43,663 nt of DNA, from sequence record OZ035792.1. One strand, written 5' to 3'. Made by a program: the position numbers and the translations under genes. Shown here in pieces: positions 3,579 to 43,505 of the stretch. The stretch is from Vectrevirus T205P5. The notes beneath the pieces are model-generated. The model was given only the letters and a program-made list of their open reading frames with translations, did not search any database and had not been told where the DNA came from. Within the stretch, counting starts at the first letter, position 1, and every line of letters begins with the position of its first letter.

Positions 3579-3792
3579 GTTTCTAGAAGTGCTGGCAGGT
3601 CTTATTGGCCTGCTTGTCTCTGCTAAGAAGAAACAAGAAGAGAAGGAGGCACAAAGTGAAGCGAATCATGTTAGTGACAACCCTTCTGATTGGTTCGCTG
3701 ACCACTTCCGGGTGTCAGACGGCGTTACCAGAGAGTCCAAAGGTAAAGCCTCTGAGGCCGACGTTGACGGAAGTTTACGAGGTAGACGATAA
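3571..3792 (+). CDS. i-spanin (Rz-like)
   Basis: N-terminal transmembrane segment FLEVLAGLIGLLVSA followed by a charged domain; contains the embedded o-spanin gene in the +1 frame. Confidence 0.5.
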   Translation: MNKFLEVLAGLIGLLVSAKKKQEEKEAQSEANHVSDNPSDWFADHFRVSDGVTRESKGKASEADVDGSLRGRR

Positions 3793-3865
3793 GGTCTGCT
3801 TTAGTAAGCCTGACGCTACAAAATTAGGTTTGTATATTCTTTCGCTAGAACGCGGATATAATTAA
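3668..3865 (+). CDS. o-spanin (Rz1-like outer-membrane lipoprotein), nested in the +1 frame of the i-spanin
   Basis: Signal peptide with lipobox MLVTTLLIGSLTTSGC, then a proline-rich mature part; classic overlapped Rz/Rz1 layout. Confidence 0.5.
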   Translation: MLVTTLLIGSLTTSGCQTALPESPKVKPLRPTLTEVYEVDDKVCFSKPDATKLGLYILSLERGYN

Positions 3866-3892
3866 TACATAGCTTTATGTATCAGTGTCTTA

Positions 3893-3918
3893 CGATTTAC
3901 TGGACACTATAGAAGAGG
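3893..3918 (+). promoter_or_regulatory. SP6-type phage RNAP promoter upstream of the tailspike genes
   Basis: CGATTTACTGGACACTATAGAAGAGG, about 80 nt upstream of the tailspike 1 start. Confidence 0.8.
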
Positions 3919-3996
3919 TAAGATAGCGCCGTTCTTTTGAGCGGCCTATTACTAGCCAATCTTCATAGGGAGGGTTGGAAAGTAATAGGAGATAGC

Positions 3997-5895
3997 ATGG
4001 CTAAATTAACCAAACCTAATACTGAAGGAATCTTGCATAAAGGACAATCTTTGTATGAGTACCTTGATGCGAGAGTTTTAACATCAAAGCCGTTTGGTGC
4101 TGTAGGTGACGCCACTACTGATGATACGGAGGTTATAGCTGCTTCATTAAACTCTCAGAAAGCTGTCACAATCTCAGACGGTGTATTCTCTAGCTCTGGT
4201 ATTAATAGTAATTACTGTAACTTAGACGGTAGAGGTAGTGGGGTGCTAAGTCACCGTTCCAGTACAGGTAACTACTTAGTATTTAACAATCCACGTACAG
4301 GTCGCTTAAGTAATATTACGGTAGAAAGTAATAAGGCGACTGATACAACTCAGGGACAGCAGGTATCTCTTGCCGGTGGAAGTGATGTTACTGTAAGTGA
4401 CGTTAACTTCTCAAACGTTAAAGGTACTGGTTTCAGTTTAATCGCATACCCTAATGATGCGCCACCTGATGGACTTATGATTAAAGGCATTCGAGGTAGC
4501 TATTCCGGCTATGCTACTAATAAGGCAGCCGGATGCGTACTTGCTGACTCCTCAGTTAACTCCCTCATAGATAACGTCATTGCTAAGAACTACCCTCAGT
4601 TCGGAGCAGTAGAGTTGAAAGGTACAGCCAGTTACAACATAGTCAGTAATGTTATAGGGGCAGATTGCCAGCATGTAACTTACAACGGCACCGAAGGGCC
4701 AATAGCTCCTTCTAATAACCTTATCAAGGGGGTGATGGCTAATAACCCTAAGTATGCAGCGGTTGTTGCAGGCAAAGGAAGTACGAACTTAATCTCAGAC
4801 GTGCTTGTAGATTACTCAACTTCTGATGCTAGGCAGGCTCATGGTGTTACCGTAGAAGGGTCTGATAACGTCATAAATAATGTGCTTATGTCAGGATGTG
4901 ATGGTACTAACTCTTTAGGACAAGGGCAGACCGCTACAATTGCACGCTTTATAGGTACAGCTAATAACAACTATGCGTCTGTATTTCCTAGCTACAGTGC
5001 TACAGGTGTTATTACTTTCGAATCCGGCTCTACCCGTAACTTCGTAGAGGTAAAGCACCCTGGCAGGAGAAACGACCTTCTCAGTTCTGCTAGTACTATT
5101 GACGGTGCAGCTACTATTGACGGCACTAATAATAGTAACGTAGTACACGCACCTGCATTAGGGCAGTACATAGGTAGTATGTCAGGTAGGTTCGAATGGC
5201 GGATTAAGTCCATGTCACTCCCTTCAGGCGTTCTTACTTCTGCTGATAAGTACAGAATGCTTGGGGATGGTGCTGTATCATTAGCTGTAGGTGGGGGTAC
5301 TTCTTCTCAAGTTCGCCTATTTACTTCTGATGGTACTTCTCGGACAGTGGCCCTCACCAACGGTAACGTGCGTCTTTCTACCAGTAGCACAGGCTATTTG
5401 CAGTTAGGTGCTGATGCAATGACCCCAGATAGTACTGGTACATACGCATTAGGTTCCGCCAGTCGAGCATGGTCTGGCGGTTTTACTCAAGCAGCATTCA
5501 CTGTTACCTCAGATGCTAGGTGTAAAACAGAACCTCTTACTATCTCAGATGCCTTACTGGATGCTTGGTCTGAAGTTGACTTTGTGCAGTTTCAGTATTT
5601 GGATCGTGTTGAGGAGAAGGGTGCAGACTCAGCTAGATGGCACTTTGGCATCATCGCTCAGCGAGCTAAGGAGGCTTTCGAACGTCACGGTATAGATGCA
5701 CATCGCTATGGCTTCTTGTGCTTCGACAGTTGGGATGATGTATACGAGGAAGATGCCAATGGCTCTCGTAAACTGATTACACCAGCAGGTTCCCGCTACG
5801 GTATTCGTTACGAGGAAGTGCTGATATTAGAGGCTGCGTTGATGCGGAGGACTATTAAGCGTATGCAGGAAGCACTAGCTTCCCTGCCTAAGTAA
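3997..5895 (+). CDS. Tailspike 1: right-handed beta-helix polysaccharide lyase-like depolymerase with C-terminal self-cleaving intramolecular chaperone domain (K5-lyase/KflA-like)
   Basis: AGGAGA RBS before the internal ATG (MAKLTKPNTEG); pectate-lyase-type N-terminal motif FGAVGDATTDDTEVIAAS; C-terminus matches the peptidase S74 chaperone domain of endosialidase-type tailspikes. KflA assignment is from recall, not a search. Confidence 0.85.
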   Translation: MAKLTKPNTEGILHKGQSLYEYLDARVLTSKPFGAVGDATTDDTEVIAASLNSQKAVTISDGVFSSSGINSNYCNLDGRGSGVLSHRSSTGNYLVFNNPRTGRLSNITVESNKATDTTQGQQVSLAGGSDVTVSDVNFSNVKGTGFSLIAYPNDAPPDGLMIKGIRGSYSGYATNKAAGCVLADSSVNSLIDNVIAKNYPQFGAVELKGTASYNIVSNVIGADCQHVTYNGTEGPIAPSNNLIKGVMANNPKYAAVVAGKGSTNLISDVLVDYSTSDARQAHGVTVEGSDNVINNVLMSGCDGTNSLGQGQTATIARFIGTANNNYASVFPSYSATGVITFESGSTRNFVEVKHPGRRNDLLSSASTIDGAATIDGTNNSNVVHAPALGQYIGSMSGRFEWRIKSMSLPSGVLTSADKYRMLGDGAVSLAVGGGTSSQVRLFTSDGTSRTVALTNGNVRLSTSSTGYLQLGADAMTPDSTGTYALGSASRAWSGGFTQAAFTVTSDARCKTEPLTISDALLDAWSEVDFVQFQYLDRVEEKGADSARWHFGIIAQRAKEAFERHGIDAHRYGFLCFDSWDDVYEEDANGSRKLITPAGSRYGIRYEEVLILEAALMRRTIKRMQEALASLPK

Positions 5896-5903
5896 GCAAC
5901 AGG

Positions 5904-5924
5904 CAGTGCGTAAGCACTGCTTTT
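5904..5924 (+). terminator. Hairpin plus T-tract in the 85-nt gap between the two tailspike genes
   Basis: GCAGTGC-gtaa-GCACTGC followed by TTTT. Confidence 0.4.
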
Positions 5925-5980
5925 CACGCAACTTTTCTTAAAGGTTATCATGGTGGTAGCCTTTCAGAAAAGGAGGTTAC

Positions 5981-7639
5981 ATGCTACAACGATTAAGTTC
6001 TTCACTAGTGAAGCACAAGAGCAAGCTAATAGGCGCTACCTATAGGCTGCTTGGTGATAAGCTTTTAGAGCTAAATAGTGTATCAGATTTTGGTGCAATA
6101 CCAAATCTTGAAACAGATAGTACTAATTCCATTCAAGCTGCAATTGATGCGACCCCGTCTGGTGGTACTCTAGGCTTCTATGGTGGGCCTTATAGATTTG
6201 GTACTGTTACAGTGGATAAACCAATTACACTAGTTGGAGATGCAGATTTGCAGTTTGAGTGCATTCGTATCAAGACAAGTAAGTTTCGTAGTTTCTTGAC
6301 AGGAACACTAACTGCTGCGAGATACGACAGTGCATGTCGTGCATTTCAAATCTTAGCCTATGAAGATGGGCAAGACTATGAGGACATCAAAGTACATGGT
6401 GCACGTTTCGAGGGTTTCTTCTATAACACAGACTTCCGAGGTCGTTCTTACGATGCGTCAGAAAGTGATCCTGCTAACCGAGTAGTTCGGGACACCTCTA
6501 TTATGGGCTGTACTTCAGTTCAACCTAAAGATGGTAAAGACAGAGGGCACTTTCAACACGTAGGTGTTACCAATGCCAAGTGCATAGGTAACTCAACGTA
6601 TGGTGGTAAGAATGCTACTTCTTATAACTTCATTAATGGTAATGGTTCTTTGGTGGTTATGGGTAACTATGACCATGACAATGAATATGGTTCCTTAGAG
6701 ATTGAGAATAACAAGATAAGCTACGGTGTTGTTACTGGTAATATCTTCCATAAACAGCTATGGATAGATGATACTAGCAACATTAACGTAACAGGTAACA
6801 CCTGCACAGATAGGATTTACATTACTGCACAATCTAACAACTCTGAGAACGTATCAGTAGTGGGAAACAATGTACCACGCATCTACGTCAGTAAGTTTGG
6901 TCAAAGCCCAACAGGGCGTCACCGTAACTTGACTATACGTGGTAATCATGTCACGGGCAAGGATGTTCCTAATTGTATATTCTTAGATGATTCTGTTGAT
7001 TCCGCTTCTATTGAAGGTAATGATTGTTATGGTGTGTCTGGTGTTAAAGGCATAGCCATTACTCGTCATGCAGATGCTAACCATACAGTGCGTCATAATA
7101 ACTTACATGGCACTAACTTACTCTTTAGTGGTTCGGGCGGAAAAGTTTATAGTTATGACAACTTTGATGTTGGAGTTGATGAATCCCCTGTGGCAGACAG
7201 AACTGACGCAGTGCACATTGACAACCTTCTTCGTGTAAATGATGAGTACCTTGATTTGCCAGGAAAGTACCTATACAAATCTAAGTATACAAGAGACATT
7301 ACACAAGGTGGCTCAACCACTATTGAGTTACCTGTAACCACAAGTGGTTCTTTGGCTTTTCGTGGTATTAGTTTATGGGTTCTTATCCGTAACACTTCTA
7401 CGGGGAACTTGTCTTCTTATCGTGTAGATGGAAGACATGCAGTAAGTGGTTCTTCTGTGACTGTTAGCTTTGGAGAGAAGTATGGGGTATTAGGAGTGAA
7501 TACTGGTGATGTTACTGTTAGTAATGATGCCTCTACGACTAATCTTATTCGTATCAAGGTAAGCAATGAGCATGTAAGTCAGACAATGCAGGTTACAGTT
7601 GTACCAGAGGTAACAAGCAGATTAGGGACTGAAGAGTAA
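5981..7639 (+). CDS. Tailspike 2: beta-helix depolymerase of unknown specificity
   Basis: AAGGAGG RBS; N-terminal motif SDFGAIPN...TDSTNSIQAAIDA; Asn/Gly/Thr/Val-rich repeats typical of parallel beta-helix tailspikes; no C-terminal chaperone domain and no sialidase Asp-boxes. Confidence 0.8.
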   Translation: MLQRLSSSLVKHKSKLIGATYRLLGDKLLELNSVSDFGAIPNLETDSTNSIQAAIDATPSGGTLGFYGGPYRFGTVTVDKPITLVGDADLQFECIRIKTSKFRSFLTGTLTAARYDSACRAFQILAYEDGQDYEDIKVHGARFEGFFYNTDFRGRSYDASESDPANRVVRDTSIMGCTSVQPKDGKDRGHFQHVGVTNAKCIGNSTYGGKNATSYNFINGNGSLVVMGNYDHDNEYGSLEIENNKISYGVVTGNIFHKQLWIDDTSNINVTGNTCTDRIYITAQSNNSENVSVVGNNVPRIYVSKFGQSPTGRHRNLTIRGNHVTGKDVPNCIFLDDSVDSASIEGNDCYGVSGVKGIAITRHADANHTVRHNNLHGTNLLFSGSGGKVYSYDNFDVGVDESPVADRTDAVHIDNLLRVNDEYLDLPGKYLYKSKYTRDITQGGSTTIELPVTTSGSLAFRGISLWVLIRNTSTGNLSSYRVDGRHAVSGSSVTVSFGEKYGVLGVNTGDVTVSNDASTTNLIRIKVSNEHVSQTMQVTVVPEVTSRLGTEE

Positions 7640-7788
7640 TGCCATTAATCAAATCAGTTAAGCAAAGTGCTGTACGCCAGAACACAGAAGAACTCATCAA
7701 GTCAGGACGTGACCCTAAGCAGGCTTATGCCATTGCCAAGGATGTACAACGTCGTGCCTTGAAGAAACCTTCTGCATCTTCTGCGTAA
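7639..7788 (+). CDS. Small basic protein (49 aa), hypothetical
   Basis: ATG overlaps the tailspike 2 stop; weak RBS; not in the ORF track because it is under 60 aa. Confidence 0.3.
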   Translation: MPLIKSVKQSAVRQNTEELIKSGRDPKQAYAIAKDVQRRALKKPSASSA

Positions 7789-7858
7789 GCAGGTTAATAT
7801 CTTAGTATAAACAAGGGCAGACTTAGGTTTGTCCTTAGTGTATTCCAAAGGAGGTAAC

Positions 7859-7987
7859 ATGCTGAAAGATGGTTGGGTTTCATATGACCCTACAGACCCT
7901 AAGAATTGGCTACAGGTTATCGCTATAGCTTGTGCAGGTAGCCTATTGGCTGCCCTGATGTATTCATTATGGATGTACACAAAGTAA
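7859..7987 (+). CDS. Small membrane protein (42 aa), hypothetical
   Basis: Strong AAGGAGG RBS 6 nt upstream; hydrophobic helix LQVIAIACAGSLLAALMYSLWMY. Confidence 0.4.
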   Translation: MLKDGWVSYDPTDPKNWLQVIAIACAGSLLAALMYSLWMYTK

Positions 7988-8154
7988 CCAAAGTCAAAAT
8001 TTTGATGTAGGCGTGTGTCAGCTCTCTCGCCCTCGCCCTCGCCGGGTTGCCCCCCATAGGGTGGCCTGAGGGAATCCGTCTTCGACGGGCAGGGCTGATG
8101 TACTCCTTCGCTAGTACAAGGGAGGCGGAGGGAGCGCCTAGGGAGGCCTAGGAA

Positions 8155-8445
8155 TGGCTTAGTGGTGGACAAGGTGATTACCTTAGTGAAGCCTCTTAGT
8201 GCATTCCTGAGGCCATTCAGGGCGTTTATGAGGTATTGACAGGGTGGATGGGCGTGGGCTATCTGTTCGTTTCGTTCACTCCGCTTGCGCTCCGTTCACT
8301 CGCTCACGTGTACCTTAGGTTATTACTTGATGGATAGCTTAGGTTAACCTTAGTGGAATGCCTTAGTTAAAGACTTAGTGCTTATCTTAGTAACAGCTTA
8401 GTAGTGTACCTTAGTTGGTCTTAGTGAATAGCCTTAGTGATTGCA
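8155..8445. repeat. Array of CTTAGT(G) short direct repeats in the genome-terminus region
   Basis: At least 13 copies of (C)CTTAG(T/G) at about 10-14 bp spacing (densest 8313-8440), in non-coding sequence between the right-end and early genes; resembles the CCTAAAG repeat array near the T7 left end. Confidence 0.7.
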
Positions 8446-8635
8446 CATGCAAGCATGTAAGATGCCAATAGGTCGCGGTCGGTAGACCGCTAAAGAAAGA
8501 GAATAGTAATAAGATGCAGTAGGAGGAACACCAGAAACCTAGCCAACCTAGCCTATCCTAGCTCTGTATCTATTGCTTTTCCTTAGTCTAACATGTGAGA
8601 CAACCTAGATTTATCTTAGTGATGATATCTTAGTG

Positions 8636-42200: not shown

Positions 42201-42543
42201 GTTATCGCCTAAAGGGTTGGCCTTTGGTGCAATGGGTATGATGAGTACAACTGCTGTATTTAGTCTAGGTGGAGATTTCTTAGGTGGCCTAGGTGTTCTA
42301 CCTTCTGAGTTAGTACAATCCCGTTATGAGGCTGGCTTTCAGACTAAGGGTTTGATAGACCAAATACCACTAGTAGGTGTTGGTCAAGATGCATATCGTT
42401 TAGCAGATTCTATAACTAAATACGCAGAGGGTGATACAGAAGGTGTAGATGTGGCACGTAGGGCTTTACGCTTAGTGCCTCTAGCTAATGTAATAGGAAT
42501 CCAGAACGCATTGCGTTATGGCTTAGATGAACTGGAGGATTAA
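39235..42543 (+). CDS. Large internal virion (core) protein, gp16-like
   Basis: 1102 aa; GGAGG RBS; final and largest gene of the internal virion protein block. Confidence 0.75.
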   Translation: MEQDIKTNWAGYVQSTPEPFSIEAAPVSAPTIRQRNELQEQVLEAKADADILGAVGAAFQNEWLAFGGKRWYDRATADFTPQPDFEIQPEQREALRFKYGTDMMQTITEGVRSEDELNFRIQNADEDLERNKRIAQAGWVGSVATIGAAVLDPVGWVASIPTGGAAKVGLVGRAVRGAIAAGVSNAAIESVLVQGDMTRDLDDIMVALGSGMAMGGVIGAVARGRATKLSEQGDDRAASIVRSADAGDRYVRAVADDSIGAMRVKGEEVLTEGAFDISSKGEDLLKTLQREGNAIDMTPRRWAGTLSALGTVVHSSQDASVRGLGARLFESPQGLGMQKASASLMQNTNLNRLKSADMNRFNDGFDLWLKENNINPVAGHTNSHYVQQYNEKVWEAVRIGMDESTPKSIRMAAEGQQAMYREALALRQRSGESGFEKVKADDKYMPDIFDSMKARRQFSMHDKEDIIELFSRAYQNGSRKVPKEVADDIARAQVNRVADATLTGQLSFEKAMSGQTKAEYEALMRKAGFSDEEIEKMVEALDNKETRDNISNRAKMSLGLDVTQEYNGIRMRDFMNTNVEELTDNYMKEAAGGAALARQGFSTYQAALNAIDLVERNARNAAKDTKAHAQFEAESAKIRQSEPDYKKAQEKIEELKKRLKLKEKDEAAGLAIDEEIRQMREGLRLIMGKSIDSNPQDLSTKMLRRGRDITGVLRLGQMGFAQLGELANFMGEFGIAATTMALGKQFRFTSKALRNGDGFFRDKNLAEVERMVGYIGEDNWLTTKGARPDEFGDVTTVRGMMAHFDQSMNSIRRAQTNLSLFRMAQGSLERMTNRQIALSFIDHLEGKKIIPQKKLEELGLTQEFMTNLQKHYDANSKGSGLLGFDTMPYAMGETLANAIRRKSGLIIQRNFIGDEGIWMNKALGKTFAQLKSFSLVSGEKQFGRGIRHDKIGLAKKTAYGFALGSIVYAAKAYVNSIGREDQDEYLEEKLSPKGLAFGAMGMMSTTAVFSLGGDFLGGLGVLPSELVQSRYEAGFQTKGLIDQIPLVGVGQDAYRLADSITKYAEGDTEGVDVARRALRLVPLANVIGIQNALRYGLDELED

Positions 42544-43505
42544 TGAGTTATACTTTCACAGAACATATAGCCAACGGTACGCAAGTAACCTATCCCTTTA
42601 GCTTTGCTGGTAGGGATAAAGGTTATCTTCGTGCCTCAGATGTGATAGTGGAGTCTCTTCAAGGTAACACTTGGATTGAGGTTACATCTGGCTGGCAACT
42701 AACTGGCACGCACCAGATTACTTTTGATGTAGCACCAGTTGCAGGTTTGAAGTTCCGTATTAGAAGGGAAGTACAAAAGGAGTATCCATACGCTGAGTTT
42801 GACCGTGGTGTTACCTTGGATATGAAGTCTTTAAATGGTTCTTTCATTCATATACTGGAGATTACACAGGAGTTACTTGACGGGTTTTATCCAGAAGGAT
42901 ACTTCATTAAACAGAATGTAAGCTGGGGCGGCAATAAGATTACTGATTTGGCTGATGGCACAAATCCGGGAGATGCAGTAAATAAAGGGCAGCTTGATGC
43001 CATCGACAAGAAGCATACAGATTGGAACGCCAAACAGGACATTGAGATTGCTGGCCTTAAGGCTGGTATGACTTCTGGTATTGCGCACAGAACTGTTCCT
43101 TGGTACACGATAGCCCAAGGTGGTGAGATTTCCGTAAAACCACCTTATGAATTTCAAGATGCACTAGTTTTCCTTAATGGGGTGTTGCAGCACCAAATTG
43201 TAGGCGCATACTCTATAAGCAACAACACTATCACTTTCGCAGAGCCGCTTGTGGCTGGTACAGAGGTGTATGTGCTGATTGGTAGTCGTGTGGCTACATC
43301 TGAACCTAATATTCAGTTAGAGTTGAACTTTGACTTAGTAGAAGGCCAACAAGTAGTACAGATTGGCTCTGCATTTAAGTACATTGAGGTCTACCTTGAT
43401 GGATTATTACAACCTAAACTTGCTTATCAGGTAGACGGTGACATTGTTACTTTCTCAGAGGGAGTGCCAGAATGCCGGATGACTGCTAAGATTATCACAG
43501 CATAA
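42543..43505 (+). CDS. Tail-fibre adaptor protein (T7 gp17 N-terminal domain-like), anchor for the tailspikes
   Basis: 320 aa resembling the N-terminal tail-attachment domain of T7 gp17, with no distal receptor-binding part; the two tailspikes encoded at 3997-7639 lack this domain. Confidence 0.7.
   Translation: MSYTFTEHIANGTQVTYPFSFAGRDKGYLRASDVIVESLQGNTWIEVTSGWQLTGTHQITFDVAPVAGLKFRIRREVQKEYPYAEFDRGVTLDMKSLNGSFIHILEITQELLDGFYPEGYFIKQNVSWGGNKITDLADGTNPGDAVNKGQLDAIDKKHTDWNAKQDIEIAGLKAGMTSGIAHRTVPWYTIAQGGEISVKPPYEFQDALVFLNGVLQHQIVGAYSISNNTITFAEPLVAGTEVYVLIGSRVATSEPNIQLELNFDLVEGQQVVQIGSAFKYIEVYLDGLLQPKLAYQVDGDIVTFSEGVPECRMTAKIITA

Follow-up and report, generated by a model that had tools for sequence, protein, structure and literature searches.

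Two tailspike genes lie side by side in the genome of Vectrevirus T205P5 (sequence record OZ035792.1), and the locus raises the question of whether the pair represents a new host-recognition system or a known system in which one spike has been replaced. The window, meaning the whole stretch of 43,663 nucleotides that was analysed, is a complete, circularly permuted K1-5-like podovirus genome (Vectrevirus, Autographiviridae), as judged from the open reading frame (ORF) map and nucleotide searches. Both spike ORFs are present on the plus strand, at 3997-5895 and 5981-7639, as described in an earlier note made from the sequence alone; the start of the region given there, 3893, corresponds to an upstream phage promoter (3895-3918) and not to the start of a coding sequence. 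As a whole, the region is very probably a standard K1-5/SP6-type host-recognition module carrying an exchanged, uncharacterised second spike. The architecture is already published and of textbook standing (Leiman 2007; Latka 2019), and the K5 lyase and adaptor are already characterised. The second spike, tailspike 2, adds a new allele to a slot that is already known, and is itself present in public records, unannotated or as "tail fiber protein".

Comparison of nucleotide sequences delimits the exchange. A search of the phage collection with positions 3893-7639 matched 104 phage records; over the first 57% of the query (to approximately 6033), K1-5, phage K5, LL11, VEc3 and a large number of further records share 96-99% of its nucleotides, the figure for K1-5, phage K5 and many Vectrevirus records over 3893-6033 being 97-98%. 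Homology to K1-5 extends over 3600-6024, stops, and resumes at 7639; these breakpoints define an exchanged cassette (6025-7638, plus strand) with the tailspike 2 body in place of the K1-5 endosialidase body. The GC content of this 1.6-kb body is 41.1%, against 45.2% for the genome. The whole of 3893-7639 is covered by one record only in the phage collection, that of the unannotated sister isolate Vectrevirus T205P4 (OZ035727.1), at 98.5% nucleotide identity, and the tailspike 2 of this isolate is 98.7% identical in amino acid sequence to that of the window; the literature searched makes no mention of a host or serotype for T205P4. The gp37/gp46/gp47 system of K1-5 has the same promoter, 85-nucleotide spacer, docking peptides, gp48 and position at the right terminal repeat, whereas its slot 2 holds the endosialidase gp47 and that of the window holds an unrelated beta-helix body without a C-terminal chaperone. 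The body would have been exchanged by recombination between conserved flanks, with the end of spike gene 1, the spacer and the first approximately 15 codons of spike gene 2 forming the 5' flank, and gp48 forming the 3' flank.

The mounting of the spikes also follows K1-5. In that phage, the lyase docks on gp37 via MAKLTKP and the endosialidase via MIQRLGSSLVK, both docking peptides are kept in K1E and SP6, and the two spikes serve alternative hosts (PMC6872550, Latka et al. 2019, summarising Leiman et al. 2007). In the window, MAKLTKP is found exactly, as residues 1-7 of tailspike 1, and the slot-2 docking undecapeptide MLQRLSSSLVK, residues 1-11 of tailspike 2, agrees with the published peptide at 9/11 positions. 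The tail adaptor, a K1-5 gp37 orthologue of 320 amino acids encoded at 42543-43505 on the plus strand, is 99.4% identical to gp37 and matches a solved "tail adaptor protein" (PDB 7y22_e) at E 1.2e-81. It combines a T7 gp17-like N-terminal tail-binding domain with the sites at which both spikes dock, and itself lacks a receptor-binding domain. Pfam Phage_T7_tail (PF03906) is found at adaptor residues 3-153 (27.2 bits, cutoff 25.2), and the Pfam scan gave no match to this family in tailspike 1 or 2 at E <= 0.01, bearing out the earlier observation that the gp17-type domain is encoded apart from the spikes. Holin, terminase, endolysin and spanin genes lie between the adaptor gene and the spikes. 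Since the docking peptides and the separate adaptor are as published for K1-5, the "modular, swappable spike system" proposed in the earlier note is the published architecture. During assembly, each spike product would trimerise and dock by its short N-terminal peptide onto the separately encoded trimeric gp37, and the adaptor would bind the tail via its T7 gp17-like N-terminal domain, as suggested by the 99% identity of adaptor and docking peptides to K1-5 and by published cryo-electron microscopy. The gp37/gp46/gp47 set of K1-5 was reportedly described by Scholl in 2001 as an adaptor-based dual-tailspike system. A 668-residue "phage tail fiber" of known structure (PDB 7y5s_A) has the N-terminal docking and linker region of slot 2 in common with tailspike 2 (residues 3-61; window 5981-6140), and the C-terminal chaperone in common with tailspike 1. 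This protein is probably the slot-2 spike of another SP6-like phage, and perhaps derives from the same work as the adaptor structure 7y22.

Slot 1 (3997-5895, plus strand) encodes the K5 (heparosan) lyase KflA, of 632 amino acids, identified from PDB 2x3h, Pfam and its identity to the K1-5 and K5 proteins. A beta-helix with a self-cleaving chaperone, resembling KflA, had been proposed in the earlier note, and the sequence search suggested as a check returned the K5 lyase. Residues 1-505, the mature beta-helix lyase, match 2x3h with E=0, the full length matches phrog_14895, and amino acid identity is 99.1% to the phage K5 lyase and 98.7% to K1-5 gp46. Residues 506-632 constitute the C-terminal intramolecular chaperone, with release at Ser505 in the motif TS505DARCK510, the position of which is the exact end of the crystallised mature K5 lyase. 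Peptidase_S74 (PF13884) is found at residues 505-565 (54.4 bits), and the chaperone domains of PDB 3gud and 3gw6 match from residues 505 and 439, respectively. Tailspike 1 differs from the KflA of coliphage K5A (2x3h) by a handful of substitutions and a functional difference is not expected; judging from 99% identity to the solved enzyme, it would cleave heparosan by beta-elimination. The true start is the ATG at 3997 (MAKLTKP...), preceded by a ribosome-binding site (RBS), AGGAG, at 3987-3991, and the TTG at 3937 given by the ORF lister is an upstream extension of the frame. The lyase DNA is also matched by four Kayfunavirus records. In addition, an 843-residue "tail spike protein" (PDB 9vvr_A) contains the K5 lyase body and chaperone (residues 242-842) after a long extra N-terminal part; in it the K5 lyase module is anchored directly, with no adaptor.

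Tailspike 2, of 552 amino acids (5981-7639, plus strand), continues from its docking peptide into a conserved linker (residues 12-55). Residues 1-55 are 51% identical to the N-terminus of K1-5 gp47 and the remainder is unrelated: beyond residue 55 no relation was found to the K1-5 endosialidase, phage K5 ORF-P or the LL11 second spike, and there is no S74 or endosialidase Pfam match in the protein. A GH58 endosialidase, with beta-propeller and S74 domain, was rejected as an identity, since the likeness to gp47 is limited to residues 1-55 and the model is a beta-helix. Structure prediction, which had been put forward as a means of locating the active-site groove, yielded an AlphaFold model built with 22 homologues (predicted local distance difference test score, pLDDT, 85.7) comprising a right-handed beta-helix (residues approximately 60-395), a low-confidence linker and a C-terminal beta-sandwich (residues 420-547). 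The predicted fold class, beta-helix, can be taken as certain, and the model and Pfam agree with the earlier description of a 552-residue beta-helix protein without sialidase or chaperone domains. Foldseek searches with the model returned phage tailspikes, including Acinetobacter phage spikes, Sf6 and HK620. A P22/Sf6-type endorhamnosidase was rejected, the match to the Sf6 N-terminal cap being marginal (E 0.013) and the Foldseek template modelling scores (0.3-0.4) being those of a generic beta-helix. A match to a characterised enzyme, endorhamnosidase included, had been considered in the earlier note; searches against solved structures gave none beyond the N-terminal cap.

The case for enzymatic activity is based on residue conservation. 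Among homologues from E. coli (Escherichia coli), Aeromonas and Arthrobacter phages, at 34-88% identity, the polar residues H190, Q192, H193, Y215, N216, N221, Y230, D231, E242, N243, W261, D263, D264 and N267 are invariant, and all lie on consecutive rungs in the model. H190, H193, D231, E242, D263 and D264, the candidate active-site residues, are unchanged in homologues of 34-37% identity that range from E. coli to Arthrobacter phages, suggesting that the His/Asp/Glu cluster (rungs 188-267) may form the catalytic groove. Tailspike 2 could instead be a binding-only fibre without enzymatic activity, in line with the failure to recognise a catalytic motif of any defined CAZy family, and with a Pfam match (PF12708, pectate-lyase-like) that is confined to the N-terminal cap and falls below the gathering score (23 vs 27 bits). 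However, the invariant His/Asp/Glu residues on consecutive rungs are shared by homologues from phages of Gram-negative bacteria and of Arthrobacter, which are unable to share a receptor, so that catalysis fits better than specific binding and a purely binding role is very improbable. Tailspike 2 is read here as most likely an active depolymerase of a non-K1, non-K5 E. coli surface polysaccharide, which would act via the His/Asp/Glu cluster and would add a further host specificity, independent of the first, to the phage. Several results weigh against this reading. No solved structure matched the catalytic core, as opposed to the N-terminal cap, in searches with the single sequence, the family profile or the isolated core (residues 150-320), and solved-structure matches assigned the protein to neither the hydrolase nor the lyase class. 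The AlgE4/AlgG-type DPH(D/E) catalytic motif (YG(F/I)DPH(D/E) or DPHD) is absent, and there is no characterised or solved close relative, nor an enzyme assay among homologues with >50% identity.

The type of chemistry bears on the likely target. It has been considered that spike 2 attacks an acidic capsule by a lyase/epimerase-like mechanism, rather than O-antigen by hydrolysis, with the CASH-type beta-helix enzymes, represented by the AlgE4 A-module (2pyg), as the comparison. Identity to this module is 20%, the catalytic core has no sequence-detectable relation to it and the catalytic motif is not kept. Furthermore, nearly the same scores are reached by GH87, GH28 and GH110 hydrolases and by hydrolase tailspikes, neither the PL6 Lys/Arg catalytic residues nor DPH(D/E) are conserved, and homologues are labelled as GH28- or GH55-related by the Prokaryotic Genome Annotation Pipeline (PGAP), making a lyase/epimerase-like mechanism rather unlikely.

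The closest relative of tailspike 2 outside Vectrevirus is gp66 of St11Ph5, an N4-like Gamaleyavirus, which aligns through its residues 400-945 with 87% identity over 546 residues, rising to approximately 95% within the beta-helix. The corresponding family, phrog_20231 (the St11Ph5 gp66-type module), is matched at E 1e-281 over the full length of the beta-helix and C-terminal beta-sandwich. St11Ph5, which belongs to a different phage family, carries the spike body behind a G7C gp66-type anchor of 400 residues, as a fusion. At the nucleotide level, homology to St11Ph5 is 90.3% over window positions 6076-7825, including a 49-residue ORF at 7639-7788 (plus strand). This ORF, whose start codon overlaps the stop codon of tailspike 2 (TAATG), is K1-5 gp48 (92% amino acid identity to gp48; phrog_2423) and borders slot 2 as a conserved 3' flank. 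gp48 is present in 122 phage records, almost all of them SP6-like, and the ORF that follows St11Ph5 gp66 is 88% identical in amino acid sequence to the gp48 ORF of the window. gp48 has hitch-hiked with the spike body across phage families, and because it travels with the body and occurs almost only in SP6-like phages, the direction of the last transfer would most likely have been from Vectrevirus to the St11Ph5 lineage. Sharing of the spike pair with St11Ph5 was rejected, the other St11Ph5 spike (gp63.1 analogue) having no significant similarity to the K5 lyase. More widely, the tailspike 2 body family is carried on at least five anchors in phages and prophages (P22 head-binding, T7 gp17 N-terminus, Tail_spike_N, tail-collar and G7C gp66-type). 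No close copy of tailspike 2 itself was found in 5,426 complete E. coli genomes, which gave only short matches of 67-73% nucleotide identity.

St11Ph5 was isolated on the uropathogenic E. coli (UPEC) strain up11, of serotype O5ab (PMC5764931), and the O5 O-antigen is a weak lead as the target of tailspike 2, a capsular target being equally possible. A simple O-antigen receptor is opposed by the findings that St11Ph5-resistant up11 mutants keep an unchanged lipopolysaccharide (LPS) ladder and that St11Ph5 weakly attacks rough mutants (PMC6393563). A fuller proposal is that tailspike 2 is an AlgE4-like beta-helix with a His/Asp/Glu site, which cleaves the acidic capsule of up11/O5-type UPEC and not the O-antigen, an enzyme type that would be new for coliphages, and that the module moved together with gp48 from Vectrevirus to the N4-like phage. 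Such a capsular target would explain why resistant mutants retain an intact LPS ladder; taken in all its parts, the proposal is unlikely.

The company kept by tailspike 2 in other genomes indicates that the two slots vary separately. In public assemblies, including a global-sewage metagenome scaffold, tailspike 2 is found at 98-99% identity behind four slot-1 genes: the intact K5 lyase (contig L012); a K5 lyase with a +1 G frameshift near codon 79 (contigs L004-L006, from three runs); a 474-residue Phage_RBD_prop protein (L014 992-2416, also L015); and a 583-residue pectate-lyase-like protein (L017 664-2415), the last two both beginning MAKLTR. In all four arrangements, slot 1 begins MAKLT(K/R), the spacer measures 84-85 nucleotides and gp48 comes next, and the earlier notion of swappable spikes is upheld by this range of partners. 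The frameshifted lyase (L004 2016-3915, and L005 and L006; Logan runs ERR3857031, ERR3857069 and ERR3857067) reads AGGGGGT in place of A-GAGGT and is split into ORFs of 80 and 550 amino acids; spike 1 may have been lost naturally here, as happened in K1E, or the contigs may have an assembly error in common. Vectreviruses with the K5 lyase and a variable second spike are reported to be a frequent arrangement (PMC11162368, Markuskova et al. 2024). LL11, vKMB14, vKMB47 and other Vectreviruses combine the K5 lyase with a non-sialidase second spike in the same architecture and with the same spacer, but their slot-2 bodies are unrelated to tailspike 2, that of LL11 having 31% identity over the N-terminal 176 residues only.

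These pairings bear on whether the two spikes, instead of broadening the host range, act in turn on one host, with the K5 lyase stripping the K5 capsule and spike 2 then degrading the O-antigen beneath it in K5-encapsulated strains. P22-like phage spikes usually target O-antigen, and homologues of tailspike 2 with 46% identity serve P22-like E. coli prophages as tailspikes (PF09008 head-binding domain), which, together with the O5ab serotype of the St11Ph5 isolation strain, speaks for sequential action. Nevertheless, spike 2 also occurs alongside a frameshifted K5 lyase and alongside three partners other than K5 lyase, and is thus independent of the K5 lyase; moreover, the St11Ph5-resistant mutants retain their O-antigen and the K1-5 spikes serve alternative hosts. 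Sequential action is accordingly regarded as distinctly unlikely.

Expression of the pair would depend on a single phage promoter. An SP6/K1-5-type phage RNA polymerase promoter for both spike genes lies at 3895-3918 on the plus strand (ATTTACTGGACACTATAGAAGAGG), and a promoter is annotated at the equivalent place in the phage K5 record Y10025.2. Its core, GGACACTATAGAAG, occurs in 11 copies in the window (<=2 mismatches), compared with 0.28 expected by chance. A scan of the window with this core found no copy between the two spike genes, making spike 2 dependent on read-through.

The gap between the spike genes is exactly 85 nucleotides (5896-5980), and the hairpin and T-tract seen there in the earlier note were considered able to set the expression ratio. 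The spacer is predicted to fold into two hairpins (minimum free energy -35.1 kcal/mol, z = -6.45, with 0/200 shuffles as stable), and the T-tract consists of 4 U only. Hairpin 1 (5901-5922, plus strand; fold and covariation) has a 9-bp stem and GUAA loop followed by UUUUC; it is terminator-like, and the LL11 record has a terminator annotated at the equivalent position. Hairpin 2 (5932-5972, plus strand; fold and conservation) comprises a 7-bp lower stem, a 1x1 mismatch, an 11-bp upper stem and a UGG loop, and its 3' arm overlaps the first 3 nucleotides of the tailspike 2 Shine-Dalgarno sequence (AAGGAGG, 5970-5976). In the two hairpins together, 97.8% of alignment cells are paired, compared with 37-58% with slid partners, and covariation is 0.179 against 0.093 in shuffles, with 0/500 shuffles as high. 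No Rfam family match was obtained in 3600-8600. The element is present in 109 phage records from Vectrevirus, Zindervirus, Acadevirus and Axomammavirus, irrespective of the adjoining spikes.

The hairpins probably act on the bicistronic mRNA, hairpin 1 as a leaky terminator or 3' stabiliser and hairpin 2 by partly masking the spike 2 RBS, and the spacer would serve in addition as a homology arm for cassette exchange. Because the element is conserved across genera independently of the neighbouring spikes, it may equally, in place of the ratio-setting suggested earlier, terminate or stabilise the transcript, mask the RBS or direct processing, or provide homology for cassette exchange. A stronger form of the last of these holds that the spacer is mainly a recombination linker and not a regulator of the spike ratio. 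The occurrence of the element across four genera and after a tail gene of phage alia (below), the position of the cassette breakpoints just beyond it, and the near-invariance of hairpin 2 across genera in sequence and not in structure alone (18 pairs, 98.3% of cells paired, with only wobble-compatible one-sided changes) are consistent with a linker. In contrast, hairpin 1 (96.7% of cells paired) carries compensatory double changes at 4/9 pairs in SP6, Proteus PM93, Citrobacter CrRp3 and Pectobacterium POP72, which argues for selection on RNA structure rather than on sequence homology, and hairpin 2 overlaps the RBS. A mainly recombinational role is a serious possibility, though we consider it the less probable one, and action on the mRNA remains the preferred reading.

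An 87%-identical copy of the spacer is found in Escherichia phage alia, a phi92-like myovirus of 147 kb, directly after the tail protein gp023 (L024 4001-4077). Both hairpins are present and the RBS is degenerate, and the copy suggests a past spike-cassette exchange between podoviruses and phi92-like phages. The 49-residue ORF after the spacer-like element in alia, gp024, was examined as a possible gp48 homologue and rejected.

With regard to the genome setting, the order of promoter, spike 1, spacer of approximately 85 nucleotides, spike 2 and gp48, adjoining the right genome end, is that of K1-5, K1E and SP6. In the window, the 234-bp terminal repeat of K1-5 corresponds to positions 8027-8261, approximately 400 nucleotides downstream of the module, where it is present in a single copy and coincides with a local GC peak of 0.53. 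As the physical genome ends lie at 8027-8261 and the window is circularly permuted, the module adjoins the right end despite its position at 4-7.6 kb, and its placement at the genome right end in the earlier note is biologically correct. An HNH/NUMOD4 homing endonuclease gene is located just after gp48 in LL11 and in one Logan relative, and is lacking from the window (comparison of 7789-8027 with L009 7988-8449 and L012 4335-4799).

The practical value of these observations is modest and nothing conceptual is changed, the architecture, the K5 lyase and the adaptor being known. The tailspike 2 module is nevertheless in circulation, both among Vectreviruses from sewage and in an N4-like phage isolated on a notoriously phage-resistant UPEC strain. 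Once its glycan is assigned, tailspike 2 would provide one more entry for genome-based prediction of coliphage host range and, possibly, a reagent against phage-resistant UPEC. The locus also shows cleanly, in a natural setting, how two spike slots with defined conserved flanks can be exchanged independently of each other, which is useful for engineering retargeted phages of the K1-5/SP6 type.

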